Below, one piece after another: positions 2,811 through 46,095 of a stretch of 64,000 nt of DNA. A program made the position numbers and the translations under genes. Positions within the stretch are counted from its first letter, which is position 1; the number at the start of each line of letters is the position of its first letter. Under the pieces are notes generated by a model. That model had not been told where the DNA came from, did not search any database, and worked only from the letters and a program-made list of their open reading frames with translations. Source of the stretch: Trueperaceae bacterium (GTDB lineage: Bacteria > Deinococcota > Deinococci > Deinococcales > Trueperaceae); NCBI GenBank assembly GCA_051649365.1, contig JBOFGY010000135.1, positions 9,842 to 73,841 of the forward strand, in the 5' to 3' direction.

Positions 2811-2852
2811 GTGAAAAGTGAAGCGTTAAATGTAAGACGTAATGCTTTAACG
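2811..2852. repeat. degenerate heptanucleotide array
   Basis: GTGAAAA GTGAAGC GTTAAAT GTAAGAC GTAATGC TTTAACG shows a period of 7. It is upstream of pth. Confidence 0.6.
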
Positions 2853-3043
2853 TTTGTTTTGCGCCCGTTGTCTTTTACAGATAACCCTATTATTTACAGA
2901 AAACAGAAATCTGTATAAATCTTGAACCTAAGTATTCCCATAGTAAGATTGCAGAATTATAAAGCATAGGCTTTAACAACGGGCTTTAGCCCCTTGCTAA
3001 AGGTGAGCTTCCTGCAAACTCAATATGGAGGCACTTAAAAGTA

Positions 3044-3090
3044 AACGGAGCAAAATATCTCGGTTGTGTAAAAAGATATTTTGCTCCGTT
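3044..3090 (-). terminator. strong hairpin downstream of the L25 gene
   Basis: A perfect 16-bp stem AACGGAGCAAAATATC / GATATTTTGCTCCGTT with a 15-nt loop, ~70 nt after the ctc stop. The U-tract on the minus strand is weak (UACUUUUAAG). Confidence 0.5.
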
Positions 3091-3161
3091 GATGCTAGAG
3101 CAACTCAAACGAACCAAAACACAAATGTAATTCAAGAGTCGCTTAACATGACAGCGTAATA

Positions 3162-3779
3162 CTACTCTTCGCCTTCTTCTTCTTTCTTACCTTTGGCAAT
3201 GACTTCAGGTTCGGTGCCAGCAGGTACAACAGGAGCCGTAGGCTCTTCGACGCGTGGGGGTACGACGGCGGCAACCGTTATATCTTCATCATCGAGGATT
3301 TCTGCTTCTGTAGGCAAGGTACTCTTGAGGTCGCGCACGTGGAGCGAGTCACCGATTTTTAGGGTACTGATGTCTACATCAATATGTTGGGGGATGAGAC
3401 GGGGCAAAATGCTAATAAGTACATCGCGTTTTTGCACGTCTAATACACCACCATCGCGCACACCTTCGGCAGTGCCAACCAGTGTAATGGGGATGTTTAC
3501 CTCGACGGCTTGACCTGCCTTCACGGCGTAAAAATCAACGTGTTGGGGGATGCGTTTACGCTTGTCCATCTGAACAGCTTTGACCAAGACCTCTTGATTT
3601 TGACCGTCAATATTGAGATCAATGATGCTCGAGGTTCCCTGACTTCTAAACACTTTGTCAAATGCTTTCATCTCTACAGAAACGGGGACATTCATTTCCT
3701 TGTTATAAACAATGCCAGGCAAAGAGCCCTGACCGCGGTTAGTTTTGCCTGCTTGACGTTTTTGTGCGACTAATTCCAT
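3162..3779 (-). CDS. rplY: 50S ribosomal protein L25 / general stress protein Ctc (long form)
   Basis: 205 aa. The N-terminus MELVAQKRQ...GSLPGIVYN... and the acidic C-terminal tail are typical of Ctc-type L25. The conserved pth-ctc-prs gene order supports the call. Confidence 0.9.
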   Translation of the reverse strand: MELVAQKRQAGKTNRGQGSLPGIVYNKEMNVPVSVEMKAFDKVFRSQGTSSIIDLNIDGQNQEVLVKAVQMDKRKRIPQHVDFYAVKAGQAVEVNIPITLVGTAEGVRDGGVLDVQKRDVLISILPRLIPQHIDVDISTLKIGDSLHVRDLKSTLPTEAEILDDEDITVAAVVPPRVEEPTAPVVPAGTEPEVIAKGKKEEEGEE

Positions 3780-3828
3780 GTTAAAGCCTCCAAAGCCTTG
3801 GCAGTATACAACAAAAGTGTAGGGAGGC

Positions 3829-4782
3829 TCAACCCCGTGTCGGGGCAGAGAAAAGCTGACTTACCGACTGATTATCGTGAACGTTGCGAACTGCCGAGGC
3901 AATCAACGGGGCGACGGAAAGCACGTTAATCTTGCCGAGATGACCCGTGTATGGAATGGTATCTGTGACAATGACTTCTTTAATCGCAGGATGAGAAAGG
4001 CGGTCAATCGCAGGTGGGACGAAAACTGGGTGCGTGGCAGCTAGAGTAATTTCGGGAACGGCCCCGAGCTCGACTAAGCCCTCGACGGTTCTGGCTACGG
4101 TGCCGGCGGTAGAAATCATGTCGTCAATCATGATGGGGCGTTTGCCGCTAACTTCACCAATGACGTGTGAAACTTCGGTTTCGGTGGGACTGCGGCGACG
4201 TTTGTAAAGAATGGCGAGGTCGAGCCCGAGGGTATTAGCAAGTCTGCGTCCTTCGGTGGCGCGGCCTACGTCAGGTGAAACAATGATGCTTTGGCTGAGA
4301 TCGGTTTTTTTGAGATAGCCGCTCAAAATATCGAGGGCGGTGAGGTGGTCAACGGGGACATCGAAGAAGCCCTGGATTTGTCCTGCATGCAGGTCTACCG
4401 TAATAACCCGGTGGATGCCGGCTTTCTCGAGCATATTAGCGACAAGTTTTGCCGTAATCGGTTCCCTCGCCTGTACTTTTTTATCTTGGCGCGCATAGCC
4501 AAAATATGGAATTACGGCATTAATACGCCAGGCTGAAGCGCGGCGCAGCGCATCCACGAAGACAAGGAGTTCCATGACGTTATGATTAACAGGTGCACAG
4601 GTGGACTGAATAATATAGCAATCACAACCGCGCACCGATTCTTCAATAAGCACGCGACTTTCACCATCTGGAAATTGCGTAATATTGCCTTGAGCAAGAG
4701 GTAAACCTAAATGGTCGGCAACTTTTTGGGCCAGGTCGTGGGTTGCACTACCCGCAAACAACTTAATCTCTTCGCCAATCAT
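3829..4782 (-). CDS. prs: ribose-phosphate pyrophosphokinase
   Basis: 317 aa with the motifs FPDGE, YFGYARQDKK and the PRPP-binding loop IIVSPDVGRA...MIDDMISTAGT. Confidence 0.95.
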   Translation of the reverse strand: MIGEEIKLFAGSATHDLAQKVADHLGLPLAQGNITQFPDGESRVLIEESVRGCDCYIIQSTCAPVNHNVMELLVFVDALRRASAWRINAVIPYFGYARQDKKVQAREPITAKLVANMLEKAGIHRVITVDLHAGQIQGFFDVPVDHLTALDILSGYLKKTDLSQSIIVSPDVGRATEGRRLANTLGLDLAILYKRRRSPTETEVSHVIGEVSGKRPIMIDDMISTAGTVARTVEGLVELGAVPEITLAATHPVFVPPAIDRLSHPAIKEVIVTDTIPYTGHLGKINVLSVAPLIASAVRNVHDNQSVSQLFSAPTRG

Positions 4783-4801
4783 GGGCGTTCACCAAAAAAA
4801 T

Positions 4802-4836
4802 AGGAGGAAGGAGGAAGGAGGAAGGAGGAAAGAGAA
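4802..4836. repeat. heptanucleotide array (AGGAGGA)x4 plus a degenerate unit
   Basis: AGGAGGA AGGAGGA AGGAGGA AGGAGGA AAGAGAA lies 20 nt upstream of the prs start codon. It would read as pyrimidine-rich CCTCCTT repeats in the prs 5' leader. Confidence 0.85.
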
Positions 4837-4974
4837 AGTCCTTCTTGCTGTTCTTGCCAGTCACTCTTCATAGCACGCCTCTCGAGCTTCGTTTTAGGTC
4901 TTTGTGGGTTAAAAACCCAACGGAGTATAACCTATCCTTACAGGTGCATTGCAAAAACATACAGAGCAAAAATT

Positions 4975-5023
4975 GTAAAACGTAAGACGTTAAAGGTGAA
5001 ACGTTTAACGTCTTTTACGTCTT
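4975..5023. repeat. degenerate heptanucleotide array forming a hairpin
   Basis: GTAAAAC GTAAGAC GTTAAAG GTGAAAC GTTTAAC GTCTTTT ACGTCTT. GTAAGACGTTAAA pairs with TTTAACGTCTTTTAC. Confidence 0.6.
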
Positions 5024-5395
5024 AACTCTTCTTCTCACATCCTTAACGCGATATCTTTTTAACATGACAGCACTGCGGTATGTGGTGTATCATTTGGCTT
5101 TAGAGCAGCGTGTGGCTTTATAGCGGCGTGTGTAAATCACTACTCTCTTCATGGAAATGGTAGCATTGAGTTAAAGTCCCTACAAGATGTGGCCCTGTGC
5201 GAGGGTCACAGGCTTAGGTTACCTTAAGGCTATACCGCGAAAGGCTTGCGAAGTTAGGCTAGCTGGGTAGTGAGTGCCAAGTATTTTGAAATTTAGGTGG
5301 AGTTTTTTAGGCTTAATCACGAGGTTGACGATGACTAAAACAGTGACACCAGACATAACCTGCACACCTGGACTGTTCACAGCAAGGGAGTCTTC

Positions 5396-6646: not shown

Positions 6647-8827
6647 ATGACCAACGTGCCAGAGAACAACCTAAAGCAAGATATTAACAACAAAGATAAA
6701 CGCCGAGCGGCGATGTTATCCGTGTTTATACACGCTTTGTTGTTTTTGCTGTTAGCGTTGTACCGTTTGCCAGAGCCAAAGCCACTCGAGACCTACCTCG
6801 TGATTGATGTTGGCGTACCTGCCTTTTCAGAAACAGAAACGCTGGCACCTGCTGCCGATGCACCAGCACCGCTTGCTGCTGAACCTTTAGTAGCCTCAGA
6901 AACTGCTGGCACGCCCCAGGCACAAAGTGCGCCCGAGGCTCCGCCGGCTTCAGCCCCCGTTGCCGAGGCACCCGCCCCCACCGAAGCTGCACCAACGCCC
7001 GAGGTGGCACCCGCCCCCGAACCGCAGCCAGCGGCCCCTGCCCCTGAACCCCAACCTGCACCCGAACCTCAACCAGAGGTAATAGAACCCCAAGTTGCAG
7101 AAGCAGCTCCGCCTGTCTCAACCGAACTTCCTGAAACCCAAGAAACTACCGCAACCTTGCCAGAAATTGAGGCAGTAGAAACAACCCCCGAAGCTCAAGC
7201 GATTGCACTGCCAACTCCCACACCCCAAGTGGATGTTGCGCCAGCCGTTAATGTCACTACGCAGGCAAGTGTTGACATCGCACCAGAGCAACCCCTGCCT
7301 ACCCCAAACGCGCAAGCCAGTGTAGCTGAGTCTCAGACGATTCCACAGCCGCAGGTTGAAACAAGTGTTGCTGAGGCGATTGCTATTCCACAACCCCAAG
7401 CCGAAATGAGTGTGGCTGAAGCTGTCGCCATTCCACAACCGCAAAGTCAGGCAAGTGTGAGCGCAGCCCAAGCCATTCCGCAACCGCAGGCACAAAGCAG
7501 TGTGGCTGCGGCGCAGGCTATTCCTCAGCCCCAAGCAGCAGCTAATGTTGCAGAAGCTGAAGCGGTTCCTCTTCCCAATGCCCAAGCTACGGTTAGTGCC
7601 GCCCAAACGATTCCTTCACCAAATGCCAGCTCGAGTGTCAGTGCATCAGAATTTATTCCTGCCCCGAACGCTAAAGCAAGTGTGACACCTGCCCAAACAA
7701 TTCCTGCACCTCAAGCGCAAGTGAGTGTTGCCCCTGGCGCATCCAATGCAGACTCTGCATTGGACTCGAGTGCGGCCACCGCCGCTAGCGGTGAAGACGG
7801 AACTTCAGGCCCAACACTTCCCGGTGCAGCGCAGGCGAACACAAATGCACTGGGGCAGCCGTCACCGGAAGATGGGGGGAACTCGAGCACCTCAGGTCAA
7901 ACCACCGAAGACCCGAACGCTACTACCGAAGGTTTAGGCGCAGCTGCCAGTTCAGATGGTGAAGGTGAAGGCACGGGTGCGCCCTACGCCCAAGCTCCCT
8001 ACCGCGAAAACCGTGACCGCCCCCTCAACGTGATGATTGATAACACCTTTGGTTATCCGCAAGCAGGCTTGCAAGAAGCCTCGATGGTTGTCGAGATGCC
8101 CGTCGAAGGTGGTGCTACGCGCCTTATGACCACGTATGACCGCGTTGACCCCTCGAGGGTTGGCCCCGTGCGAAGTGCCAGAGACTACTTTCACACGTTA
8201 TCGAGCAATATGGATGGCGTACTCGTGCATGATGGTGGTTCGCCACAAGCGATGGCTGCCATTGAGCGTGGCAGCATACCTACACTTAACGCCTATAACA
8301 ATGGTGGTCTTTTCAAACGCGAAGGTGGCGAAGCTCCTTACAATTTGTTCTCGAGTGGCAGCTCGTTGCGTGAGGCCGTGGCGAAACTTAGGCTCAACCG
8401 CTCGAGACCCGTGAGTGGCACGATTTTCCGTCCCGAAGACACTGAGAGCGCAGCAACAACTATCAAGGTAAATTATTCGGGCGCGTATGACAGCGGCTTT
8501 CAGTACATCGAAGACTTAGACCAATATCGCTGGATACGCAACGGAGACGACGCGGTAGATTTTTCAGGTCAAGCTGTGTACGCCCAAGCTGTGCTCGTTG
8601 CAACGATTACGGCGAAGGAAATTCCTGATGATCCTGCGAGTAGGCTGTATATTCCGCTCGAGAGTAGCCGCGCCACACTTTATGTTCGTGGGAAAGCGAT
8701 TGCGGGAAATTGGTCACCCAATGGTGGCATTCAATTTGCGACAAGTCTCGGGGAACCCATTGATTTAACGCCATTCAAAACCTGGGTGCTGTTTACGCCA
8801 ACCTATGCTGAAGTAACGCAACAGTAA
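6647..8827 (+). CDS. TonB-like N-terminal anchor, Pro/Ala-rich repeat spacer and C-terminal DUF3048 domain
   Basis: The N-terminus KRRAAMLSVFIHALLFLLLAL resembles the TonB anchor. It is followed by a long APEPQP spacer and then 15-aa repeats. The C-terminus RPLNVMIDNTFGYPQAGLQEASMVVEMPVEGGATRLMTTYD...GPVRSARDYF matches my recollection of DUF3048 rather than a TonB C-terminal domain. Confidence 0.7.
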   Translation: MTNVPENNLKQDINNKDKRRAAMLSVFIHALLFLLLALYRLPEPKPLETYLVIDVGVPAFSETETLAPAADAPAPLAAEPLVASETAGTPQAQSAPEAPPASAPVAEAPAPTEAAPTPEVAPAPEPQPAAPAPEPQPAPEPQPEVIEPQVAEAAPPVSTELPETQETTATLPEIEAVETTPEAQAIALPTPTPQVDVAPAVNVTTQASVDIAPEQPLPTPNAQASVAESQTIPQPQVETSVAEAIAIPQPQAEMSVAEAVAIPQPQSQASVSAAQAIPQPQAQSSVAAAQAIPQPQAAANVAEAEAVPLPNAQATVSAAQTIPSPNASSSVSASEFIPAPNAKASVTPAQTIPAPQAQVSVAPGASNADSALDSSAATAASGEDGTSGPTLPGAAQANTNALGQPSPEDGGNSSTSGQTTEDPNATTEGLGAAASSDGEGEGTGAPYAQAPYRENRDRPLNVMIDNTFGYPQAGLQEASMVVEMPVEGGATRLMTTYDRVDPSRVGPVRSARDYFHTLSSNMDGVLVHDGGSPQAMAAIERGSIPTLNAYNNGGLFKREGGEAPYNLFSSGSSLREAVAKLRLNRSRPVSGTIFRPEDTESAATTIKVNYSGAYDSGFQYIEDLDQYRWIRNGDDAVDFSGQAVYAQAVLVATITAKEIPDDPASRLYIPLESSRATLYVRGKAIAGNWSPNGGIQFATSLGEPIDLTPFKTWVLFTPTYAEVTQQ
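7296..7740 (+). repeat. in-frame 45-nt (15-aa) degenerate tandem repeat, ~10 copies, inside the TonB-like gene
   Basis: Units include IPQPQVETSVAEAIA / IPQPQAEMSVAEAVA / IPQPQSQASVSAAQA / IPQPQAQSSVAAAQA / IPQPQAAANVAEAEA / VPLPNAQATVSAAQT / IPSPNASSSVSASEF / IPAPNAKASVTPAQT. Confidence 0.85.
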
Positions 8828-8871: not shown

Positions 8872-9108
8872 ATGATTTTACGAGCCAACCGCAGTCCTTT
8901 GACGATTAAAGAAGGCATTGCCGTTTTGACACACTATCCAGAATTTTTGCAAAACAATAATTGTTTCTCCTTGTTTGCTTCGCGCACCACAGACCAGCGT
9001 GTACATGCCTTGTGGATTAGCGAGAAGCAACCTAAACTTGGTTGGTGCTGGGATAGAAATCCGCATACCTGGTTGGGCTCGGTTTCGTGCGGAGCCCTAG
9101 TTAGTTAG
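8872..9108 (+). CDS. hypothetical protein (78 aa)
   Basis: ORF only. Trp/Cys-containing motif KLGWCWDRNPHTWLGS. Overlaps the convergent regulator gene by 4 nt. Family not recognised. Confidence 0.35.
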   Translation: MILRANRSPLTIKEGIAVLTHYPEFLQNNNCFSLFASRTTDQRVHALWISEKQPKLGWCWDRNPHTWLGSVSCGALVS

Positions 9109-10106
9109 ACAAGATTTCCCTTGGCAAGTTCTATTGCACGTTTTGCTAAGTCCTCAAAGGCTTTTTTCAAAGCAGTAGGCTCAAGCACTTTCACGGCGTA
9201 GGGAAGCTCGAGCAAATACACAACCACGCGCCAGAACCATTCTGGGTGTGCCATCACCGTGAGCATCACACCATCATCAACAGGCTCGAGCGTCGCTATA
9301 TAAGCGGGAATATATTTGCTGGCTTCTACTAAGTTTGTTTGCAACAGAACGCGGCAGGGAACACTGCCAGGAAACGGTGCTTGGGCAAGTGATTCACTAA
9401 TTGTTTTGAAGGCGTTAAAGTTTTTGGGTGGCTTGAAAGTCTCACCTGTAGTTTTTAATATCTCGAGCCTGTCTAGCCTAAATGTTCTTACATCTTTTCG
9501 CAAATGGCAATAGCCAGCGACATACCAATTGTTATTGAGATAAACGATGCCGTAAGGGTCTAGCTTTCGGTAGGTAAAACCGCTCTCGTGCGAACGATAG
9601 CGAACCTCGAGCCTTTCCTTATGCTGCACCGCTTGCGAGACATCGAGCATCGTGTGGCTTTCTACCTTGTCCAGCTTGAGTGGTTCAGATGTTTCGGTCT
9701 CGAGTGTTTGCAACACAGAATCTATGCGCTCACCAAGGCTTTCACTCAGGACGTGCTCGAGACGTTTAAACGCGCTCTCGGCAGCTTTGGCAAGTTTGGG
9801 TGTTTTCGTGCGTTGAGCTTGTTTTAAGCCTAACGCCAGGACGAGGGCTTCATCATCTGTAAAACGCAAGGCTGGTAAAAGCGAGCCCCGTCCTAATGTG
9901 ACTCCGCCGCCGCGCCCTGGCAGGGTTTCTACTTCAATCTCGAGGTCTTGGAGTCTTGCAAGGTCACGGCGGATGGTGCGTTCGCTTACACCAAAATGTT
10001 CTGCTAGAGCTTGTGTGGTGAGTTGCTTTTGTCCACGCAGTAAGTCAACCATTGCAAAAAGCCTGTCAGTGAGTCCATTCATTCTAAAAGGAATCATACT
10101 TGACAA
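9105..10106 (-). CDS. YafY-type transcriptional regulator (N-terminal HTH plus WYL domain)
   Basis: HTH region LTTQALAEHFGVSERTIRRDLARL. WYL region NWYVAGYCHLRKDVRTFRLDRL. The start may be the internal MNGLTDRLF (10082). Confidence 0.85.
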   Translation of the reverse strand: MSSMIPFRMNGLTDRLFAMVDLLRGQKQLTTQALAEHFGVSERTIRRDLARLQDLEIEVETLPGRGGGVTLGRGSLLPALRFTDDEALVLALGLKQAQRTKTPKLAKAAESAFKRLEHVLSESLGERIDSVLQTLETETSEPLKLDKVESHTMLDVSQAVQHKERLEVRYRSHESGFTYRKLDPYGIVYLNNNWYVAGYCHLRKDVRTFRLDRLEILKTTGETFKPPKNFNAFKTISESLAQAPFPGSVPCRVLLQTNLVEASKYIPAYIATLEPVDDGVMLTVMAHPEWFWRVVVYLLELPYAVKVLEPTALKKAFEDLAKRAIELAKGNLV

Positions 10107-10116: not shown

Positions 10117-10137
10117 CCTGGTCAAATCGTGTCCAGG
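10117..10137. promoter_or_regulatory. palindromic motif copy 1 (CCTGGTCA-N5-TGTCCAGG) in the divergent regulator / epoxide hydrolase region
   Basis: CCTGGTCAAATCGTGTCCAGG lies 11 nt from the regulator ORF start and ~155 nt upstream of the hydrolase start. Flanks are shared with copies 2 and 3 (CTAAAyCTGG.CA-N5-TGTCCAGGTT...TTTT). Confidence 0.5.
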
Positions 10138-11454: not shown

Positions 11455-11475
11455 TCTGGACAGTTTTTGTCCAGG
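11455..11475. promoter_or_regulatory. palindromic motif copy 2 (TCTGGACA-N5-TGTCCAGG) within a ~75-bp repeated leader
   Basis: TCTGGACAGTTTTTGTCCAGG is followed by a T-run, ~50 nt upstream of the VOC gene. The stretch 11449-11523 is ~85% identical to 13036-13112. It could also act as a terminator hairpin. Confidence 0.5.
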
Positions 11476-13041: not shown

Positions 13042-13062
13042 TCTGGACAGTTTTTGTCCAGG
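13042..13062. promoter_or_regulatory. palindromic motif copy 3 (TCTGGACA-N5-TGTCCAGG)
   Basis: Identical 21-mer to copy 2, ~50 nt upstream of the DJ-1/PfpI gene. An extra half-site-like TCCAGA lies at 13026-13031. Confidence 0.5.
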
Positions 13063-16572: not shown

Positions 16573-16607
16573 AGGAGTTGGGAACTAGGAGTTAGGATTT
16601 AGGGTTA
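16573..16607. repeat. degenerate heptanucleotide array
   Basis: AGGAGTT GGGAACT AGGAGTT AGGATTT AGGGTTA lies immediately upstream of the cysS start codon. Confidence 0.7.
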
Positions 16608-20470: not shown

Positions 20471-20489
20471 GTAGAGAGTGTAACATACG

Positions 20490-20560
20490 GGGAATGAGCG
20501 ATGAAGAATGAGGGATGAGTAAAATCAAATGACTCTTTCCTCATTCCCCCTTCATCGTTC
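20490..20560. repeat. heptanucleotide array paired with its own complement (hairpin) in the scpA/xpb divergent spacer
   Basis: GGGAATG AGCGATG AAGAATG AGGGATG AGTAAAA is followed, after a short loop, by CCTCATT CCCCCTTCATCG TTCC. It ends 8 nt before the xpb ATG. Confidence 0.7.
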
Positions 20561-20567
20561 CTAACCT

Positions 20568-22179: not shown

Positions 22180-22198
22180 GGAATCAATCTACTAAGTA

Positions 22199-22259: not shown

Positions 22260-22308
22260 AGTCTAAACTTTAGCTGTGCGTTAGTTATAGAGCCAGCATA
22301 GAATTTTG

Positions 22309-29903: not shown

Positions 29904-29947
29904 TGTATAGCCTAGTACCTATATGTGTATAGCCTAGTACCTATATG
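29904..29947. repeat. 22-bp perfect tandem duplication
   Basis: TGTATAGCCTAGTACCTATATG x2. AGCACTTC x2 follows nearby at about 29965-29985. Confidence 0.85.
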
Positions 29948-31697: not shown

Positions 31698-31800
31698 TTT
31701 AGTTAACCTACTTTATAAGGTAAGCCAGTTACCTGAGAATTCTGGTTTAGAAACCATCCGCGTCAGCGTATCATTTCGTTGCTGCTCTGCGCGTGAGCTA

Positions 31801-31842
31801 GGGGTTGGGGTAAAGGTTGAAAGTGAAAGGTGAGAAGGTGTT
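31801..31842. repeat. degenerate heptanucleotide array
   Basis: GGGGTTG GGGTAAA GGTTGAA AGTGAAA GGTGAGA AGGTGTT lies between yidD and yidC. Confidence 0.65.
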
Positions 31843-31848
31843 AACTTT

Positions 31849-32145
31849 TTACTTTAACCTCTTGCTTCTTACTTCTTCCTCTGCAAGTTTTGCCAACAAG
31901 GCATCCGCTCGTTTACGTGGGGGAACAGGGTCGTAGCCGCCAGGGTGGAAGGGGTGGCATTTGAGAATGCGCCACACACCCATGCCAAACCCCTTGAGAG
32001 TTCCATGTAGGGTGAGGGCCTCGAGCATGTAATGGCTACATGAGGGCTCGAAGCGGCAGGTCGGCTTGGTCTTTAAAGGGGATAAAACCTTTTGATAAAA
32101 GCGAATAGGCGCAATAAAAAGGCGTTGGAAGGGTGTGAGTGTCAC
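31849..32145 (-). CDS. yidD: membrane protein insertion efficiency factor YidD
   Basis: [19 protein letters not shown]...[17 protein letters not shown] is the YidD signature. Confidence 0.9.
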
Positions 32146-32170: not shown

Positions 32171-32212
32171 GGGTTTAGAGGTTTGGGGTTTGGGAGTTGG
32201 GGTTTGAAGGTT
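32171..32212. repeat. G-rich heptanucleotide array (GGGGTTT-like), overlapping the 3' end of the rnpA ORF
   Basis: GGGTTTA GAGGTTT GGGGTTT GGGAGTT GGGGTTT GAAGGTT. The complementary strand encodes the tail ...KPSNPNSQTPNL of the rnpA ORF. Confidence 0.75.
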
Positions 32213-37847: not shown

Positions 37848-37880
37848 GGTGTGTATATCCTCTCTATAAACAGCATAAAG

Positions 37881-37935
37881 GATGAAGGAGTTAGGAGGAA
37901 GGAGAAATCTTCCGTCTCCTAGCTCCTAACTCCTT
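37881..37935. repeat. heptanucleotide array plus complement forming a 13-bp perfect hairpin
   Basis: GATGAAG GAGTTAG GAGGAAG GAGAAAT. AAGGAGTTAGGAG (37885-37897) pairs with CTCCTAACTCCTT (37923-37935). It lies between a Roadblock gene and the DUF3467 gene. Confidence 0.75.
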
Positions 37936-37953
37936 ATATGCTAACTTCTGCAT

Positions 37954-38316: not shown

Positions 38317-38405
38317 GGTTCTCCTTGAATTTGGGCTATTAGGGTACGGGGTTTAGGGGTTTTTGGTTTTACCCCAGACCCCATCCCCTGCACCCTGTAC
38401 CCGAT

Positions 38406-38765: not shown

Positions 38766-38820
38766 GCCTTTAGCCTAGCACGCTTGGTAGGGGGGAGATA
38801 TTGAAATTCTCTCAAAAGGT

Positions 38821-38848
38821 GGGGTTTGGGGTGCAGGAGTTGGGGTTT
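38821..38848. repeat. G-rich heptanucleotide array
   Basis: GGGGTTT GGGGTGC AGGAGTT GGGGTTT. A GGGGGG run sits ~25 nt upstream (38790-38795). Confidence 0.7.
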
Positions 38849-38922
38849 AGAAATTTTTAAACCTTAAAGCCAAACCCATCTCTTTAGTGTGAATCTTTTT
38901 CAGAGGGTCCTATATGGTACTT

Positions 38923-39639: not shown

Positions 39640-39755
39640 TTTAACGGATAAAGGTAAGATGAAGGAACGTTTTACCTTTCACGTCTTACGTCTCGCGAGC
39701 CACATGTTTGGCAACCATCATAGTTTTACACGAAACAATCTGATATAACCACCTA

Positions 39756-42700
39756 ATGGCCGATTTGCGCGGAAAGCTCGAGCCCTACTACACCCAAGTC
39801 AACGCGATGATTTTATCGCGGCAGCATCCTGTCTCTGGCCTTTTGCCCGCGAGTACCGCCGTGAACGAACACGGCGATTACCGTGACGCCTGGGTGCGTG
39901 ACAATGTGTACAGCATTTTGGCGGTGTGGGCCTTGGCACTGGCTTACCGCAAACTCGATAATGACGAGGGGCGCGGTTATGAGTTAGAACACGCTGTCAT
40001 TAAGCTCATGCGCGGCCTGCTTGTTGCGATGATGCAACAGGCCCCCAAAGTTGAAGCTTTCAAGAAGTCGCAAAATCCACTTGATGCGCTGCACGCCAAA
40101 TACAACACCGCTACAGGCGACACCGTCGTCCCAGATGATGCTTGGGGTCATTTGCAGCTCGATGCAACCTCACTTTATTTGCTCATGCTCGCACAAATGA
40201 TTAGTTCGGGACTCGACATTATTCACACACTCGATGAAGTGAACTTCGTACAGAATTTAATTTTTTACATTAGCCGTAGTTACCGCACACCCGATTATGG
40301 GATTTGGGAACGTGGCGATAAAACGAATCACGGTGAAAGTGAACTTAATGCGAGTTCGGTGGCACTGGCTAAAGCAGCCCTCGAGGCCCTCGCAGGCTTT
40401 AATCTTTTTGGTGTACGTGGTTCGCAAGCTTCCGTGCTGCACGTCTTACCGGATGATATTGCGCGTTCCAAGATCGTTTTAGAAGCGATGTTGCCACGCG
40501 AATCGCGCTCGAAAGAAATTGATGCCGCCTTACTGGGTGCCATAAGTTTTCCTGCGTTTGCCGTCGAGGACACAACACTCGTTGAAAGAACAAGAAACGA
40601 CATCATTACAAAACTGTCGGGTAAATACGGACTCAAACGCTTTCTTAAAGACGGTCATCAGAGTGTTCTCGAGGATATCCAACGCTTACACTACAAGAGC
40701 GAAGAACTCAAACAGTTTGAACATATCGAAAGCGAGTGGCCGCTCTTTTTTGCTTATCTCATGTTGGATGGTTGCTTTTTTGGGAACTTCGAGCAAGTGG
40801 AAACGTATAGCGAAAAACTAAAAACAGTCGCCGTAACGCGGAATGGTTTTTCACTTCTCCCCGAACTCTATTACGTGCCGATTGAAGGTGTAGACGCAGA
40901 GCGCAGCGTGCCTGGTTCGCAACCCCGTAACCCCAATGACAACGTGCCGCTCGTGTGGGCGCAGAGTTTGTGGTTGCTGGCGCAACTTTTGCAAGACAAA
41001 CTCGTGACGGTGTTTGATATTGATCCACTTGGCCGACATCAGCAGCTCGATAAAACCTCGCAGCCTGTGGTGCAACTCGCGCTCGTGGTCGAAGACAAAA
41101 CTTTACAAGAAACATTGGCAAACCAAGGCATTCCTAACGAAACCCTCGAGCAAATTCGCCCGATTCGACTCGAGCGTGCTTCGCAGATTACAAGGGCCTA
41201 CGAGCAAATTGGACGCAATGAAAAACTAGGGTTATCGGGTCGTCCATCGCGGCGATTACTTAGTTTATCTACCTCGAGAATTTTTCGCTTGCGTGGTGAA
41301 CTTATCGTATGTCCGCCGTCATCGTTTGACGAGCGCGAATTTTATTTATCACTCGATACGAATTTTTTGATTGAACGCCTCCGTGCTGAAATTTCTTACG
41401 TGCAGCGCACGTGGTCACTCTTGGGCCGCCCGACGATGACACTTTTTATCACGAAGTCACTTTACGAAGACGAAGAGGGTGCGCTGCAAACCTTTTTAGA
41501 TGAAGTGCGTCAGGGGTGGTGTGGTGAAGGTGTTAACCGTGTGGCGATAAAACTTGCACCACTGAAGCAACTCGTGCAAACTGCAAACCTCGAGCGCGTA
41601 GACAATCTACACGATTTTGATTTTATCGAAATTATCGACGATACTGTAACGACACATTATCTTAAGGTTGATACAGCACACATCAAATCCCTTACTGCCG
41701 ATGAAGAAGTGCGACTCGAGTTAGAAGTAGATACCACGCGGCTCGAGGAACGCTTGCGCCAAAGTCAAAACGTGTATGAACACGTAGAGATTTTAAGCAT
41801 TCTGACGGGCAAGCTTGGCTTAAAAGCAAGCATCCAAGGTCTTGCTACTGTGGAGGATTTGCTCGAGGAGGTTTATCAACGCGCCAGTGAATTACGGCTT
41901 TGGGCCGCCGTGCGCCGTGCGGCAGGCCTCCTCGAGAAAGTAGACTTCCTTCTTAGCGACAGCGTAACAGATTTGCTCGTGAAGCAAAAAACCATTGTCA
42001 TTGGTAAATCGTATAGCGAACGCTCACTCCTGACAAGGCCTGTGCCGCTTCAAGAGTTGCTAACCCTCATCAAAGAATTTTGCCGCGAAGATATTCGTGA
42101 CCGTGTGCTCACGCAAGAAATTCTTATTTATTTGGGCTCACTCGTGCGCTCGAGTCCCGAACTCTTTACCGATCTCATGACGATTCGCGTTGGCTTTTTG
42201 ATTGTTTTGTTAGCAAGCGATGTTGCAGATGAACTAAACCTTACACCCGACGAAGGTTACGAACAACTCATGCATTTAGCACCCTCTGAAATTCAGAAAC
42301 GTTTGAAAACCATTCTCTCGAGCTACGCAGATAAGCAACAACGTTTGCAACGCCGCGAGACGATGCGTGCTTACCAAGTCGAGCGTGAGCAAATCCTTGT
42401 TGCACCCCTCGAGTGGTTTAAGACGATTGCGACGCTCGAGTTAGATCCTAAGAAAACGAATGACAGTTGGTGGCGTTGGCGACAGCGCGAAGGTAGCTTG
42501 AGCCTTATCCCTAACGGGTTTTACAGTGCCGTTTGGGAACTCCTCAAACACTGTCAGGGTATTATTATTGGTGACAAGTTGGAAAGACGCAATAGGCTCG
42601 AGAGTAATGTGCTACTTTCTGAAATGACACCGGGCGAAAGCAACTTCGCCATGCGCGTCGAACACCTCCTCAACAAAATTCCTTCACCCGAATACCGACA

Positions 42701-42962
42701 ACTCAGCGTCGAAGCAATGATGGCCCTGCACAGAGCGAGTGAACAAAACCCTGCCTTGCAAGTGCAAGACTACATCGTCCTCGATGTCATTATCGGTCAT
42801 GCGGTGCGTTTAGCCTATATGGAAAATGAACCTTACAGTGATTATGAAAAAAGCAAAGCGGCTGCCTGGGCTACATTTTACGAACGCCCACCCAAAGTGA
42901 CAAGTCGTCAGATTGTGGCTGCGTTTGAATTTTTGTTATCCGGTGAAAAACAGATTGCATAA
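39756..42962 (+). CDS. large GH15 (glucoamylase-like) / phosphorylase-kinase alpha-beta-like protein
   Basis: 1068 aa. The N-terminal GLLPASTAVNEHGDYRDAWVRDNVYS...GIWERGDKTNHG...ELNASSVA resembles the GH15 catalytic-domain pattern, followed by a long helical C-terminal extension as in PHK regulatory subunits. Confidence 0.65.
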   Translation: MADLRGKLEPYYTQVNAMILSRQHPVSGLLPASTAVNEHGDYRDAWVRDNVYSILAVWALALAYRKLDNDEGRGYELEHAVIKLMRGLLVAMMQQAPKVEAFKKSQNPLDALHAKYNTATGDTVVPDDAWGHLQLDATSLYLLMLAQMISSGLDIIHTLDEVNFVQNLIFYISRSYRTPDYGIWERGDKTNHGESELNASSVALAKAALEALAGFNLFGVRGSQASVLHVLPDDIARSKIVLEAMLPRESRSKEIDAALLGAISFPAFAVEDTTLVERTRNDIITKLSGKYGLKRFLKDGHQSVLEDIQRLHYKSEELKQFEHIESEWPLFFAYLMLDGCFFGNFEQVETYSEKLKTVAVTRNGFSLLPELYYVPIEGVDAERSVPGSQPRNPNDNVPLVWAQSLWLLAQLLQDKLVTVFDIDPLGRHQQLDKTSQPVVQLALVVEDKTLQETLANQGIPNETLEQIRPIRLERASQITRAYEQIGRNEKLGLSGRPSRRLLSLSTSRIFRLRGELIVCPPSSFDEREFYLSLDTNFLIERLRAEISYVQRTWSLLGRPTMTLFITKSLYEDEEGALQTFLDEVRQGWCGEGVNRVAIKLAPLKQLVQTANLERVDNLHDFDFIEIIDDTVTTHYLKVDTAHIKSLTADEEVRLELEVDTTRLEERLRQSQNVYEHVEILSILTGKLGLKASIQGLATVEDLLEEVYQRASELRLWAAVRRAAGLLEKVDFLLSDSVTDLLVKQKTIVIGKSYSERSLLTRPVPLQELLTLIKEFCREDIRDRVLTQEILIYLGSLVRSSPELFTDLMTIRVGFLIVLLASDVADELNLTPDEGYEQLMHLAPSEIQKRLKTILSSYADKQQRLQRRETMRAYQVEREQILVAPLEWFKTIATLELDPKKTNDSWWRWRQREGSLSLIPNGFYSAVWELLKHCQGIIIGDKLERRNRLESNVLLSEMTPGESNFAMRVEHLLNKIPSPEYRQLSVEAMMALHRASEQNPALQVQDYIVLDVIIGHAVRLAYMENEPYSDYEKSKAAAWATFYERPPKVTSRQIVAAFEFLLSGEKQIA

Positions 42963-43130: not shown

Positions 43131-44207
43131 TTATTGTCCTTGTTCAACAACGGTTGTCCATTCTTTCAACCAACGCACCACATTTTCTTCGATACTATCA
43201 GAAGCTAAACGGGCAATTTGCTCTGGACTTGGCTTCACTGCAAATTGTTCAAAATCACTTGGTAATTTTATATTTTCGATGACAGGATAAACGAACATAT
43301 TGCTTGGTACATCACTTTGAAAAGATTCTGAAAGCATGAAATCTATAAATGTTTGTGCGGCTTCTAAATCTTTTGTGCCTTTAAGAATGCCTACAGCTTC
43401 GATTTGTTCATAAGCACATTGCTCGCAAAAAAGATTAACGGTTGCTCCTGCTTCTGCACTCGGGCTTGTTGCATAACTCAGAACGATAGGTCTATCACCA
43501 CCATAGCGTGTGAAGGCAGCGTTGTAGGCTTCGCTCCAACCACTCGAGACCATTACCTCATTGTCTCTCAGTTCTCGCCAGTAATCTAACCACGTATAGT
43601 CACTTTCTTCACCAAACCGCGCAATCGTGGCTAGCATAAAGCCCAAACCTGGACTGCTTGTGGCAGGATTTTGAACAACGGTTAGACCTTTGTAAATTTC
43701 TGTTGTTAAATCTGTAATGTCTTTTGGTAACGCCAAATCATTTTCCTCAAAGTACGCTTTGTCTACATTAAAGTTGATGTAACCTACATTAACAGGTGTT
43801 ACCGAGTGGGTGGTATCAAACTCAAAGTCATCTGCAACATTGGCAAGCTCAGGGCTTTGATAAGGCTCAAAAATATTTTCGCTCATAGCTCTCGCTAGTA
43901 AACTGTTATCAATGCCGTAAAGCACATCAGCTAGTGGATTGTCTTTCGTTAATATAGCGCGGTTGACCACTTCGCCAGCATCGCCGGCAGGGAAGAACTC
44001 GAGTTCAATACCTGTCTCTTCTGTAAACGCTTTAATGATGGCTTCAGAAACGACGAACGAGTCGTGCGTGAGTACACGCAGCGTTTGTGCCACAACGGAA
44101 TGATTCACCACAAAGGCACAAAGACACAAAAGGATGGAAGGTGGAAGGTGGAAGGTGGAAGGTGGAAGGTTTTTTAACCTTTTACTTTTTACTGCTTTCC
44201 TAAACAT
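43131..44207 (-). CDS. thiB: thiamine ABC transporter substrate-binding protein
   Basis: Collinear with E. coli TbpA as I recall it (LRVLTHDSF..., NPATSSPGLGF, GWSEAYNAAF, VLSYATSPSAE). ATG 44207 has AGGAGG 4 nt upstream and lies downstream of a TPP riboswitch. I reject the ORF-track start at 44237. Confidence 0.85.
   Translation of the reverse strand: MFRKAVKSKRLKNLPPSTFHLPPSILLCLCAFVVNHSVVAQTLRVLTHDSFVVSEAIIKAFTEETGIELEFFPAGDAGEVVNRAILTKDNPLADVLYGIDNSLLARAMSENIFEPYQSPELANVADDFEFDTTHSVTPVNVGYINFNVDKAYFEENDLALPKDITDLTTEIYKGLTVVQNPATSSPGLGFMLATIARFGEESDYTWLDYWRELRDNEVMVSSGWSEAYNAAFTRYGGDRPIVLSYATSPSAEAGATVNLFCEQCAYEQIEAVGILKGTKDLEAAQTFIDFMLSESFQSDVPSNMFVYPVIENIKLPSDFEQFAVKPSPEQIARLASDSIEENVVRWLKEWTTVVEQGQ
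44135..44169. repeat. perfect heptanucleotide repeat (TGGAAGG)x5 inside the thiB signal-peptide coding region
   Basis: Five exact units, read on the minus strand as CCTTCCA x5, encode ...LPPSTFHLPPS... The unit length is not a multiple of 3. Confidence 0.9.
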
Positions 44208-44210
44208 AAA

Positions 44211-44380
44211 TCCTCCTAAAATCACCAAGGAGGACATAGGGATTTACCCTTGCTTCACTCTTCCTACGCTCGCATGAACGAGTTCAGGTTCGAGGGTTTG
44301 TTCTCAGTCCAAGCTTTATAGGTTTATTGTATAACCGGGTTGTTTTATAACCACGTAGCTGGACACCCCTGGTGACAAGG
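44211..44380 (-). promoter_or_regulatory. TPP (THI-box) riboswitch with an SD-sequestering expression platform
   Basis: The minus-strand sense contains AGGGGTGTC...CTGAGA..ACCCTCGAACCTGAACTCGTTCATGCGAGCGTAGGAAG (aptamer ~44372-44258). TCCTCCTT (44227-44234) can then pair with the SD AGGAGGA (44211-44217). Confidence 0.85.
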
Positions 44381-44503: not shown

Positions 44504-45157
44504 GTGCGACTCCTTCAGAACTTGCTCGAGAACAACAGGCGTTGGTCCGAGGATATGCGTGCGATTACGCCGGATTACTTCGAGCGTCTGGTAGGGCAGC
44601 AAACCCCTGAATATCTTTGGATTGGTTGCTCAGATAGCCGTGTACCCGCCAATCAAATTATTGGGCTTGCTCCAGGCGAAATTTTTGTTCACCGCAATGT
44701 CGCCAATGTTGTCGTTCATACCGATTTTAATTGTCTTTCGGTTTTGCAATACGCGATTGATATTCTTGAAGTAAAACACGTGATGGTCTGTGGTCATTAT
44801 GGTTGTGGTGGTGTGCGTGCGGCAACGCAGCCCACACAGTTTGGACTTGTTGATAATTGGTTTCGCCACGTGCGCGATGTCGCGCAGAAATATCAAGTGA
44901 TTCTAGATAGATACAAAGACGAAGACGAAAAACTAAAAAAACTTTGTGAACTCAATGTGATTGAACAAGCCTATAACGTGTGTCACACGACGATTGTGCA
45001 AAACGCTTGGCAGCGTGGGCAAGCCTTGGCGGTGCATGGTTGGATTTATGACTTACATGACGGGTTAATTCGTGACTTAAACATCACGATAACAAACGCA
45101 AATGAAATCTCGTCGGCGTATCGTATGGCGACGGAGAATGAATTCGTTTTAACCTAA
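44504..45157 (+). CDS. can: beta-class carbonic anhydrase
   Basis: Collinear with E. coli Can as I recall it (WIGCSDSRVPAN, FVHRNVANVV, CGHYGCGGV, HGWIYDLHDGL). GTG start. Confidence 0.9.
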   Translation: MRLLQNLLENNRRWSEDMRAITPDYFERLVGQQTPEYLWIGCSDSRVPANQIIGLAPGEIFVHRNVANVVVHTDFNCLSVLQYAIDILEVKHVMVCGHYGCGGVRAATQPTQFGLVDNWFRHVRDVAQKYQVILDRYKDEDEKLKKLCELNVIEQAYNVCHTTIVQNAWQRGQALAVHGWIYDLHDGLIRDLNITITNANEISSAYRMATENEFVLT

Positions 45158-45159
45158 TG

Positions 45160-45220
45160 TCTATCTTAAAACTCAAATCACACTGTTTACAGAAAACAAA
45201 TGCGTAAGGTTTTAGGATAA
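45160..45220 (+). repeat. ~60-nt structured intergenic element, copy C
   Basis: TCTATCTTAAAACTCAAATCACACTGTTTACAGAAAACAAATGCGTAAGGTTTTAGGATAA. The termini CTATCTTAAAAC / GTTTTAGGATAA pair. It starts 3 nt after the can stop codon. Confidence 0.6.
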
Positions 45221-45229
45221 GCTTTTAAC

Positions 45230-45691
45230 ATGGGTTATCTCAGCGATTTGCGGAAACTTGTTGGCTCTATACCCCTTATTGTTGCAGGTGCGTCGGTTGT
45301 TGTGATGGACGAACAAAATCGTGTGCTGCTAGGTCGGCGTTCAGATAATGGTTTTTGGTCTCCGCCTGCTGGCTCGAGTGAACTAGGTGAATCCCTCGAG
45401 CAAACTGCCAGGCGTGAACTTTTTGAAGAAACAGGACTCGAGGCTGGAAACCTAGAGTTACTAACTATATTTTCAGGTGTGGAGTTTTTTTACCAGTATC
45501 CACACGGTGACCAAATTTATAACGTTGCTGCCGCTTATTTGACAAGGGATGTGCGCGGTTCTCTCATGGCTGATGGTATAGAAACAAGAGAGCTTCGTTA
45601 TTTTCATCTTCAGGATTTGCCGATGGAAAATGGCCCGATTGAGCGGGCCCTGTTTCGGTTATTGCAAGAAAAGTTTGCTACTCGAGATTAA
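45230..45691 (+). CDS. NUDIX hydrolase
   Basis: The Nudix box GSSELGESLEQTARRELFEETGL fits GX5EX7REUXEEXGU. Confidence 0.85.
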   Translation: MGYLSDLRKLVGSIPLIVAGASVVVMDEQNRVLLGRRSDNGFWSPPAGSSELGESLEQTARRELFEETGLEAGNLELLTIFSGVEFFYQYPHGDQIYNVAAAYLTRDVRGSLMADGIETRELRYFHLQDLPMENGPIERALFRLLQEKFATRD

Positions 45692-45751
45692 TACTTAACG
45701 CTGGCTCGAGTTCAGCGATACTCACTTCAAATCGTTTTGCGAATTTCATCA

Positions 45752-46051
45752 TTAAACGTACTTGTCACCGCGCACGACTTCAACATCTGTAACATAAGCA
45801 ATCAGTGCGTAGTTTGTAAAATAGCGTTTTGCTAAGTGCTCTAAAATTTTATCTGCTACGGCTGCACTCACCACCGTTTCAACTTTGAGATTGCTCTCAA
45901 TATCACTGCTGCGTAAGCCGCGTGTGCCTTCACCGCGCACGTCGCTGATGGTGTAGCCTTTGGCACCAAGGCGTTTGAGGTCGGCGAGCAGGAAATGCTC
46001 GAGCACGGCCTCGGCGATAATGGTGACGAGTTTGAGCGTTACGGTCTGCAT
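45752..46051 (-). CDS. sbtB: PII-like signalling protein, SbtB-type
   Basis: 99 aa. KLVTIIAEAVL...GAKGYTISDVRGEGTRGLRSSDIESNLKVE...KRYFTNYALIAYV is collinear with my recollection of cyanobacterial SbtB. It lies directly downstream of the SbtA-like permease. Confidence 0.65.
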   Translation of the reverse strand: MQTVTLKLVTIIAEAVLEHFLLADLKRLGAKGYTISDVRGEGTRGLRSSDIESNLKVETVVSAAVADKILEHLAKRYFTNYALIAYVTDVEVVRGDKYV

Positions 46052-46060
46052 GGGAAACCT

Positions 46061-46095
46061 GTAAAGAGTAAAGAGTGAAGAGTGAAGAGTGAAAA
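46061..46095. repeat. heptanucleotide array between the sbtA-like and sbtB-like genes
   Basis: GTAAAGA GTAAAGA GTGAAGA GTGAAGA GTGAAAA. Confidence 0.8.

Follow-up and report, generated by a model that had tools for sequence, protein, structure and literature searches.

Degenerate heptanucleotide arrays, many of them paired as hairpins, in the intergenic DNA of a low-GC clade of uncultured Trueperaceae

The intergenic DNA of a 64-kb stretch of the genome of a Trueperaceae bacterium (phylum Deinococcota; contig JBOFGY010000135.1), hereinafter the window, carries short, degenerate tandem arrays of 7-nucleotide (nt) units, many of which are followed by their own reverse complement and form long hairpins. 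The period-7 phenomenon is real and strong, and the arrays are specific to a low-GC (47-50% guanine plus cytosine) clade of uncultured Trueperaceae. The account that we favor as the probable one is that they are heptanucleotide simple sequence repeats (SSRs) generated by slippage, akin to the short tandemly repeated repetitive (STRR) sequences of cyanobacteria, with frequent inverted duplication, and tolerated where the sequence is unconstrained. The material comprises the window and about 170 kb from relatives, with gene calls that are longest-open reading frame (ORF) approximations.

Tandem Repeats Finder (TRF), run at a low threshold, returned 62 rows for the window, 17 of them with period 7. 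In a second search, an in-register match scan evaluated against 20 dinucleotide-preserving shuffles, 15 period-7 arrays were observed at the threshold of 15/21 matches compared with a mean of 0.2 (maximum 1) in the shuffles, an approximately 75-fold excess, and 9 at the threshold of 20/28 matches compared with 0 in the shuffles. In the same scan, periods 5, 6, 9, 10 and 11 yielded only 0-2 arrays each, periods 14 and 21 are harmonics of 7, and period 8 shows an excess weaker than that of period 7 among the short periods; period 18 is also raised (10 arrays), which is taken to be due mostly to coding repeats. The autocorrelation of intergenic DNA, the check suggested in a first-pass annotation of the window that had pointed out the arrays, peaks at lags 7 (0.289), 14 (0.279) and 21 (0.276) over a baseline of ~0.26 (standard error ~0.0045), and coding DNA shows period 3 only. 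Arrays cover 6.2% of the intergenic bases versus 0.46% of the coding bases and touch 13 of the 44 spacers of at least 40 nt; therefore, the spacers do carry heptamer arrays but are not "built from" them as originally proposed. In a comparison set of 1.24 Mb of loci from unrelated bacteria, there are 3.2 period-7 arrays per 64 kb and no preference for 7. A preferred 7-nt unit, an excess over composition and a mainly non-coding location are among the features by which heptanucleotide long SSRs are recognized, and these three are found here.

Every array listed in the first-pass annotation was located by TRF, by a laxer scan (14/21 matches) or by eye, the most degenerate ones (2811-2852, 38821-38848 and 61952-61985) only at the laxer threshold or by eye. 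Arrays beyond that list are found at 38342-38402, 39650-39698, 48251-48285, 49371-49398, 61253-61315 and 63655-63705. The inventory is as follows (MFE, minimum free energy; z, z-score of the folding energy; rows marked unstranded are assigned to neither strand).

2806-2852, plus strand: degenerate GTGAAAA/GTAAGAC-type array, weak hairpin part; spacer between L25/Ctc and pth (both genes on the minus strand); 14/21 matches; z = -1.9
4802-4838, plus strand: homopurine (AGGAGGA)x4-5; 20 nt upstream of the prs start; TRF 5.3 copies, 90% matches
4975-5023, unstranded: (ACGT-N3)n, GTAAAAC GTAAGAC GTTAAAG GTGAAAC then complement, hairpin; divergent prs/exbB spacer; TRF row 4975-5004; MFE -17.9, z = -3.5
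16573-16607, plus strand: AGGAGTT-type; directly upstream of the cysS Shine-Dalgarno (SD) sequence and start codon; TRF 5.1 copies
20490-20562, unstranded: GGGAATG/GATGAAG and reverse-complement array, hairpin; divergent scpA/XPB-helicase spacer; TRF row 20494-20519; MFE -33.5, z = -6.0
31798-31884, unstranded: GGGGTTG/AAAGGTT/GAAAGTG and complement (ACTTCTT-type), hairpin; yidD 3' end and yidD-yidC spacer; TRF rows 31819-31840 and 31844-31877; z = -4.8
32171-32212, plus strand: GGGGTTT-type, stand-alone; rnpA 3' end, upstream of yidD; TRF 5.0 copies (32171-32206); no hairpin, z = +1.2
37878-37943, unstranded: AAGGAGT/AGGAGGA and CTCCTAA complement, hairpin; between the DUF3467 and Roadblock/LC7 genes; TRF rows 37878-37904 and 37916-37934; MFE -37.6, z = -8.6
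38342-38402, unstranded: GGGGTTT-type and ACCCCAN complement, hairpin; between two Roadblock/LC7 genes; G-quadruplex (G4) motif on both strands; z = -6.4
38817-38880, unstranded: degenerate GGGGTTT/GGAGTTG and partial complement; between the GNAT and Roadblock genes; z = -3.4
39650-39698, unstranded: GGTAAGA/TGAAGGA then TTTTACC TTTCACG TCTTACG (ACGT-N3 family); divergent GNAT/GH15 spacer; weak fold, z = -1.0
44130-44170, plus strand: (TGGAAGG)x5.7, the most perfect array; inside the solute-binding protein ORF (minus strand); TRF 97% matches, unit AAGGTGG = TGGAAGG
46061-46095, plus strand: GTAAAGA x2 / GTGAAGA x3; fills the sbtA-sbtB spacer; TRF 46064-46093, 4.3 copies, 95% matches
48251-48285, plus strand: (AGCT-N3)n, TTTAGCA TTTAGCT TTCGGCT TTAAGCT; divergent spacer between pfk and the gene at 48393
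49371-49398, plus strand: GTAAAAC x3; between convergent genes; TRF 49377-49396, 2.9 copies, 92% matches
61253-61315, unstranded: TCAGCTA/TCAGCCG (AGCT-N3) and partial complement, hairpin; upstream of asd; z = -4.1
61946-62029, unstranded: GTAAGAC-type (61946-61985) then ACGTTTT/ACGTTTC complement units (61995-62021); TRF rows of period 20 and 7
63655-63705, unstranded: CATCAGC CGTCAGT ... AACAGCT GATGGCT GACAGCT (AGCT-N3 family), hairpin; z = -3.3

According to the Pfam annotation, the surroundings of the arrays are ordinary housekeeping genes, namely the prs - L25/Ctc - pth operon, the rpmH-rnpA-yidD-yidC operon, cysS, two Roadblock/LC7 genes together with the DUF3467 gene, sbtA-sbtB, and scpA beside the XPB helicase gene. 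The arrays are located in 5' leaders (prs, cysS, sbtB), within-operon gaps, divergent promoter spacers, convergent gaps and gene ends, so that the gene map bears out the original placement in leaders, between operon genes and at gene ends. The arrays are not all intergenic, however, given that the one at 44130-44170 is translated within a signal peptide (see below). The array at 61946-62029 reaches into the longest-ORF start of a major facilitator superfamily (MFS) transporter gene. In the mRNAs, the prs leader array (4802-4838; gene on the minus strand) reads (CCUCCUU)n, that of cysS (16573-16607) consists of AACUCCU-type units, and the one at 46061-46095 reads UCUUCAC/UCUUUAC.

At eight sites, an array and the reverse-complement array that comes after it pair into a long stem, with z from -3.3 to -8.6 when the region is folded against 200 shuffles. 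These include the three hairpins claimed in the first-pass annotation, at 20490-20560, 37885-37935 and 4982-5023 (z = -6.0, -8.6 and -3.5, respectively), and five further ones. The folded regions are:

20485-20567: z = -6.0
37865-37945: z = -8.6
38335-38405: z = -6.4
31795-31885: z = -4.8
61245-61320: z = -4.1
4965-5030: z = -3.5
38810-38885: z = -3.4
63640-63735: z = -3.3

The arrays at 4802, 16573, 32171 and 46061 stand alone, the z-score at 4802 reflecting a short unrelated stem. The plus strand of the window is G- and T-rich throughout, and the arrays are strongly asymmetric, with 30-50% G and 2-12% C on one strand; in 9 of the 11 paired cases, the G-rich arm lies 5' of the C-rich arm. The clearly asymmetric stand-alone arrays of the window, seven out of seven, are rich in G on the plus strand, which in every case is the antisense strand of the neighboring gene, so that the mRNAs carry G-poor pyrimidine tracts. 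Replication and transcription orientation are inseparable within 64 kb, and in two relatives an array is rich in purines when read in the sense direction (L083 4941-4982 and L094 9639-9676).

When 12 regions were folded as RNA on both strands, the plus strand folded better than the minus strand in 8, through G.U pairs: the region 31795-31885 folds with -32.5 on the plus strand versus -11.1 on the sense (minus) strand, and 44105-44200, where the plus strand is again antisense, with -28.2 versus -11.1. The arm-to-arm mismatches are G:T on the G+T-rich plus strand and look like ordinary strand-biased mutation of a decaying palindrome rather than upkeep of a stem in the sense transcript. Selection on sense-RNA stems was rejected because it is the antisense, G+T-rich strand that folds better. 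Intrinsic terminators were rejected as well: in a consensus scan of the segment from 30 to 50 kb of the window, none of the hairpin arrays there is among the terminator-like sites, the hairpins lack U-tracts and, unlike operon-end terminators, hairpin arrays are also found in divergent spacers and inside operons. A search of the window with Rfam 15 at the gathering threshold detected only a tRNA-Arg (58071-58145) and no family matching an array. The canonical G4 motif (at least four G-runs of at least three, with short loops) is present at a single locus of the window, 38333-38402, on both strands, so that a general G4 reading was rejected; the motif is found also in L093 and L094.

The taxonomic assignment of the window bears on the distribution of the arrays. 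The window has a GC content of 47%; the GH15 family protein (39756-42962), which is 'phosphorylase kinase'-like, is 100% identical to MGL4609869.1, encoded on a 76-kb contig of a Trueperaceae metagenome-assembled genome (MAG), and CysS and Prs have named relatives in Trueperaceae/Deinococcota. A scan of Genome Taxonomy Database (GTDB) genomes found no close representative, the best ones showing 69-71% Prs identity, 71-74% GC and no arrays. Trueperaceae markers combined with 47% GC, as opposed to 71-74% GC in the nearest representatives, therefore place the window in a low-GC Trueperaceae clade. Loci of relatives were gathered via CysS and GH15 homologues from JGI, ENA and NCBI assemblies, with a metagenome scan for further relatives adding seven loci (two of them close but short). 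Within the whole set of relatives, L094, L095 and L096 are practically the same sequence, as are L083, L084 and L085. Relatives at 80-93% amino acid identity (46.6-50.6% GC; L081-L086 and L093-L099) carry like arrays and share heptamer words with the window: L081 and L097 have two hairpins, one of AGGTTAA and one of GAGACGA/TCTCTCG units; hairpins are also found in L082, as (AGTAGTC)4...(CTGACTA)3, in L086 (AAGATTG) and in L099 (CAGGGGA); L083 has a 14-nt AGGTGAAAGAGGAA array, and the 23 kb of L093 contain six arrays. The pooled intergenic DNA of these close relatives peaks at lag 7 (0.279), and the relatives at 52-71% amino acid identity (51-74% GC) show no period-7 preference. The occurrence of like arrays in independent assemblies from the three sources, and their absence from distant relatives, rules out an assembly artefact and indicates a trait of one clade.

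A cyanobacterial origin was rejected because the window contains no HIP1 site (GCGATCGC, 0 occurrences) and the marker proteins are Trueperaceae-like. The host is thus not a cyanobacterium, but the statement of the first-pass annotation that nothing in the window is otherwise cyanobacterial-specific does not quite hold: among the homologues of the GH15 protein outside the immediate clade, the best (55-57% identity) come almost entirely from cyanobacteria such as Leptolyngbya, Nostocaceae and Oscillatoria. In addition, the genes at 46099-47079 and 45752-46051 encode SbtA and the PII-like SbtB, respectively (Pfam domains checked), a bicarbonate transporter pair of a type best known from cyanobacteria. 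Together, the GH15 homologues and SbtA/SbtB suggest gene exchange or a shared habitat with cyanobacteria, which is of note because heptamer repeats are a cyanobacterial hallmark.

Comparison of orthologous spacers provides a view of how the arrays change. At the cysS leader, the window exceeds L082 and L083 by one 7-nt unit, seen as an alignment gap of precisely 7 columns in a spacer that is otherwise well conserved. The array at this site is kept in L082, L083 and L099, where L099 carries a CCTAANN array, and L081 and L097 have AGCTGAC-type units instead. Elsewhere, words differ or whole arrays are present or absent. The sbtA-sbtB spacer contains TCTTCAC/TCTTTAC in the window, CCTCCTT in L093 and a C/T-rich tract in L094; the hsp20-miaA spacer has an AGGTTAA hairpin in L081 versus a CAGGGGA hairpin in L099; the purE-GH63 spacer has no array in the window, a GAGACGA hairpin in L081 and an AGTAGTC hairpin in L082; and the pfk-sbtA spacer, 3 nt long in the window, measures ~130 nt in L093 and L094, where it contains a purine/pyrimidine hairpin array. 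Within arrays, mismatches per 7 nt rise with the separation of the compared units (2.16, 2.37, 2.87 and 3.29 for separations of 1 to 4), and such greater likeness of nearer units is expected from local duplication followed by decay. Several words recur: AGGAGGA in the window and twice in L093, GTGAAGA/GTAAAGA in the window and L093, GGGGTTT twice in the window and in L093, AACTCCT twice in the window and in L082, and AGGTTAA in the window, L081 and L094; (ACGT-N3)n is found at five loci of the window, and (AGCT-N3)n in the window, L081 and L093. When the five ACGT-N3 copies are aligned, the heptamer core is common to them, and there are no common flanks or ends.

The most perfect array lies in coding DNA. 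On the coding strand, (CCTTCCA)5 at 44130-44170 is located in the gene for a solute-binding protein (43131-44237, minus strand), between a conserved SD sequence with ATG ("MF..") and the mature N-terminus "AQ|TLRVLTHDSF", and is translated as ..LPPSTFHLPPS.. / ..NLPPSTFHLPPS.. in the signal peptide. In the window as well as in L093 and L094, the frame stays open from the conserved SD and ATG through to the mature protein. In the L093 signal peptide, CATCAGC and CACTCTT/TACACTT arrays encode the n- and h-regions, and the L094 signal peptide has a weaker array of GCTCTTC units. Because adding or removing a single unit would change the reading frame, the gene is a candidate for phase variation; gene callers take the array into the ORF. 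Haemophilus and Neisseria have phase-variable contingency loci whose 5' coding regions contain SSRs, and a near-perfect 7-nt x 5.7 repeat in the 5' coding region of an exported protein gene resembles them; unlike those loci, no length polymorphism was seen here, the host is not a host-adapted pathogen, and most of the arrays are non-coding and degenerate. A separate observation at this gene is a conserved pairing CCTCCTTGGTGATTT(T)AGGAGGA upstream of the start (44205-44235; L093 14560-14600), predicted to involve an anti-SD-like sequence and the SD sequence, which could occlude the ribosome-binding site; Rfam detects no riboswitch at 44205-44235.

STRR heptamers have been known since 1990 in heterocystous cyanobacteria (Calothrix, Nostoc, Anabaena), with the consensus words CCCCAGT (STRR1), TTGGTCA (STRR2) and CAACAGT (STRR3). 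The likeness to them that had been pointed out in the initial description is one of kind: in both cases, a 7-nt unit forms dispersed, short, degenerate, mainly non-coding arrays, with a small set of several word families per genome. The differences are the Deinococcota host, the absence of a HIP1 site, the pairing of many arrays with their complement as hairpins, and the words themselves, which, as had been noted at the outset, are others, STRR1-3 being never in tandem in the window, nor in 107 kb of close relatives. Among the further known heptamers, TAACTGA, GGGAATC, GGGGAYT, TTTTGAA and GACCAAT likewise do not occur in tandem in the window. Hence, the arrays of the window share the defining behavior of the heptamer class and depart from STRR sequences only in word and host. 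The notion that such repeats are confined to heterocystous cyanobacteria does not stand, since a heptamer excess is already on record for Xanthomonas, Burkholderia, Beggiatoaceae and some Bacteroidetes, and the trait thus is not peculiar to heterocystous cyanobacteria.

According to the summaries of the survey of Mrazek et al. (2007) in two later papers (PMC4679880, PMC4692102), heptanucleotides are the most abundant among the long SSRs with units of 5-11 nt in most genomes, their phylogenetic spread is sporadic (Burkholderia, cyanobacteria, actinobacteria, Xanthomonas), and slippage favored by a polymerase contact of ~7 nt has been proposed. As far as these summaries describe them, the long SSRs resemble the present arrays in the over-representation of 7-nt units, the intergenic bias, the sporadic spread and the proposed slippage, and the arrays of the window differ in being shorter (3-6 units) and more degenerate; the summaries name Burkholderia, Xanthomonas, Nostoc and unnamed cyanobacteria and actinobacteria, and no Deinococcota. 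A limited literature search found no report of heptamer repeats in Deinococcota.

Among individual families, the GGGAATC arrays of Xanthomonas typically consist of four units and occupy the same gene gaps in related species, while varying widely in length and sequence; some are inverted pairs able to form stem-loops, and Nostoc PCC 7120 has GGGGAYT arrays (PMC4692102). The likeness to the present arrays extends to G-rich intergenic heptamers in about four units, inverted pairs and persistence at the same gene gaps, but those genomes have one dominant word with G4 potential, whereas the Trueperaceae clade has many words, most of them without it. In Beggiatoaceae, cyanobacteria and Bacteroidetes, TAACTGA arrays directly precede start codons, and binding of S1, cold-shock proteins or CsrA and horizontal spread have been suggested for them (PMC4679880). 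These also are 2-6 heptamer copies just upstream of starts, including those of ribosomal and housekeeping operons, with a suggested role in translation and a distribution that hints at a cyanobacterial link, but they involve one word, nearly always in direct and rarely in indirect repeats; the nearest word in the window is TCAGCTA, one mismatch from the complement TCAGTTA. Repetitive extragenic palindromic (REP) sequences and their hairpin-forming combinations (REPINs; PMC3116915) share with the present arrays the form of short intergenic imperfect palindromes with hairpins within and between operons, but are conserved in sequence, defined in length and accompanied by a cognate REP-associated tyrosine transposase (RAYT), whereas the arrays show word-level similarity and an internal period of 7, with no RAYT among 40 ORFs of the window scanned against Pfam.

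Under the slippage scenario, a short 7-nt word in change-tolerant DNA would be duplicated in register by slipped-strand mispairing during replication; units would be gained or lost singly and then decay by point mutation, so that an array may stay in place even as its word drifts or gives way to another one. For many arrays, the nascent strand would fold back or switch templates and thereby place an inverted copy beside the original, so that a 5' arm rich in G and a 3' arm rich in C could form a long hairpin. The tolerant DNA would comprise spacers, 5' leaders, operon gaps, gene ends and even a segment encoding a signal peptide. With slippage as the generator and inverted duplication as the source of the hairpins, the arrays would be largely tolerated by-products, and any influence on gene expression, whether through unstructured leaders poor in G, through stem-loops or through a possible frameshift switch in the solute-binding protein, would be secondary. 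Several observations weigh against this scenario. The cysS leader array is conserved at least as well as the rest of its spacer, and arrays stay at the same sites across ~20% protein divergence, a hint of constraint. The arrays draw on a small vocabulary that comes back at unrelated loci and across genomes, which would not be predicted if arbitrary words were subject to purely local slippage, and the uniform orientation of the seven stand-alone arrays needs a rule set by replication or transcription, whereas slippage alone gives none. Comparison of copy numbers between relatives gave only the one exact whole-unit indel of the cysS leader; L081 and L097, at 98% nucleotide identity over 20.6 kb, differ by five small indels, none of them in the three array loci, and the degenerate arrays are therefore not hypermutable. 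Finally, the period of 7 is explained by nothing tested here. The recurrence of the same words, the persistence of arrays at fixed positions and the strand rule lie outside the slippage account and keep alive a regulatory reading or one that invokes a dedicated system.

If the arrays were cis-regulatory RNA, their pyrimidine-rich, G-poor tracts would be selected as ribosome standby sites or as sites for RNA-binding proteins (S1, cold-shock, CsrA-like), and the hairpin arrays would serve as RNA stabilizers or attenuators inside operons. The G-poor sense mRNAs of all seven asymmetric stand-alone arrays fit this picture, as do the several arrays that end 0-25 nt from a start codon (prs, cysS, sbtB, yidD), the sbtA-sbtB spacer that is pyrimidine-rich in all three lineages despite different words, the conservation of the cysS leader array in four lineages and, in general, the persistence of sites while words change; precedents are the TAACTGA repeats of Beggiatoaceae (PMC4679880) and the heptamer repeats upstream of recF and recO in Nostoc, which are reported to affect the expression of these genes (bioRxiv 10.1101/2022.06.06.494920). 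Yet the stems fold much worse as sense than as antisense RNA, hairpin arrays are found also in divergent promoter spacers and in coding DNA, no U-tracts follow the hairpins and none of those between 30 and 50 kb was flagged as terminator-like, two relatives have purine-rich sense arrays, the purE-GH63 and pfk-sbtA spacers of the window lack the array present in their orthologues, and no candidate binding protein was identified; on balance, we consider such a function unlikely. Still less can be said for a dedicated, lineage-specific heptamer system, in which a trans-acting factor, for instance a nucleic-acid-binding protein that recognizes heptamers, or a special property of the replisome or repair machinery would make, orient and maintain the arrays, with words from a small vocabulary, at set positions such as leaders, operon junctions and promoter spacers. 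This is a speculative and quite unlikely proposal, although word turnover at kept positions, a vocabulary common to loci and genomes, and the strict strand rule within the window are compatible with it. Such a system, by descent or horizontal transfer, could also underlie the heptamers of Nostocales, Beggiatoaceae and some Bacteroidetes; the Trueperaceae clade itself appears to exchange genes with cyanobacteria.

It is improbable that DNA structure accounts for the arrays, that is, that homopurine mirrors (AGGAGGA, TGGAAGG) adopt H-DNA, GGGGTTT-type arrays G-quadruplexes and palindromic pairs cruciforms, with effects on replication, supercoiling or nucleoid proteins as discussed for GGGAATC in Xanthomonas and GGGGAYT in Nostoc. 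The G/C strand asymmetry, the G4 motifs at 38333-38402 and in L093 and L094, the 28-nt homopurine mirror tract at 4802-4829 and the precedent of G-rich heptamers, inverted pairs among them (PMC4692102), agree with this explanation, but the G4 pattern is found in 2 of the ~18 arrays of the window, the ACGT-N3, AGCT-N3 and GTAAAGA families have no G-runs, and the diversity of words speaks against one structure or one binding protein. Miniature mobile elements of the REP/REPIN or miniature inverted-repeat transposable element (MITE) kind, copied by a transposase such as RAYT, could explain why the same word families appear at unrelated loci and in different genomes (ACGT-N3, for instance, at five loci in 64 kb) and why whole hairpins are present or absent in orthologous spacers. 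However, the five copies of that family share only the ACGT-N3 core, the array copies in the window show no conserved ends or interior, fixed length, terminal inverted repeats or visible target-site duplications, no transposase or Y1 domain was detected among the 40 scanned ORFs, the stand-alone arrays are not palindromic, and an internal 7-nt periodicity is foreign to REP elements and MITEs; this explanation, accordingly, was rejected as very improbable. Chance, low-complexity composition or assembly error might be invoked given the extreme degeneracy of the arrays at 2811-2852, 38821-38848 and 61952-61985 and the source of the DNA, a MAG, but is effectively refuted by the period-specific excess over shuffled sequence and by the recurrence of arrays, partly at orthologous positions, in independent assemblies. 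Slipped-strand duplication with inverted copying thus remains the account that we prefer.

The window contains several other features of interest. Three copies of a ~70-nt hairpin element are scattered along the plus strand (205-285, 22193-22273 and 45154-45234); the element's core TATCYTRNAAYTCAAATCRCA occurs 3 times versus 0.08 expected, and its stem has the consensus CTATCCTAAAAC...GTTTTAGGATAG, with three pairs changed on both sides. The element has no Rfam match, is unrelated to the heptamers, and could be a small RNA or a REP-like element. The palindrome CTGGACA-N5-TGTCCAGG occurs three times (10118-10137, 11456-11475 and 13043-13062), each copy upstream of a plus-strand gene, namely a 413-aa ORF (10198), a glyoxalase gene (11524) and a DJ-1/PfpI gene (13113). 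The adjoining 333-aa ORF (9105-10106, minus strand) probably encodes a helix-turn-helix (HTH)-WYL (PafC-like) regulator, judging from a similarly placed gene in L082, and the palindromes together with their genes resemble the operators and members of a small regulon for stress detoxification. The gene at 20568-22040 (plus strand) encodes an XPB-type helicase that includes the XPB damage-recognition domain. Near it, also on the plus strand, is the gene for a DUF790 protein (24632-25846), which we take to belong to the Bax1-nuclease family; between the two, on the opposite strand, lies a 611-aa ORF (22555-24390) whose product looks like a PAS-GGDEF-EAL signaling protein. Intergenic tandem repeats with longer units are located at 1418-1511 (19 nt x5), 25900-25947 (16 nt x3), 29904-29947 (22 nt x2) and 61489-61545 (19 nt x3), and coding repeats in a DUF3048 protein gene (45 nt; 7340-7444) and at 49665-49739 (9/18 nt). 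The segment 59326-60215, an 890-nt spacer in the crude gene map, holds a putative 299-aa plus-strand ORF (59189-60088) with internal repeats and no Pfam match that overlaps the 5' end of the opposite-strand ORF 58363-59325.

The arrays described here add an independent and phylogenetically remote host lineage, the Deinococcota, to a known heptamer-repeat phenomenon for which there is no established function and no established reason for the number 7. This Trueperaceae clade sharpens the question by combining many words, hairpin pairing, persistence of sites through changes of word, a consistent strand orientation and one case of read-through in a signal peptide. In practical terms, the arrays are usable as strain-typing markers, and they call for caution in gene calling because the longest ORFs run into them. 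For the biology of the family, comparison of heptamer-rich with heptamer-free Trueperaceae could point to a correlated replisome, repair or RNA-binding gene.

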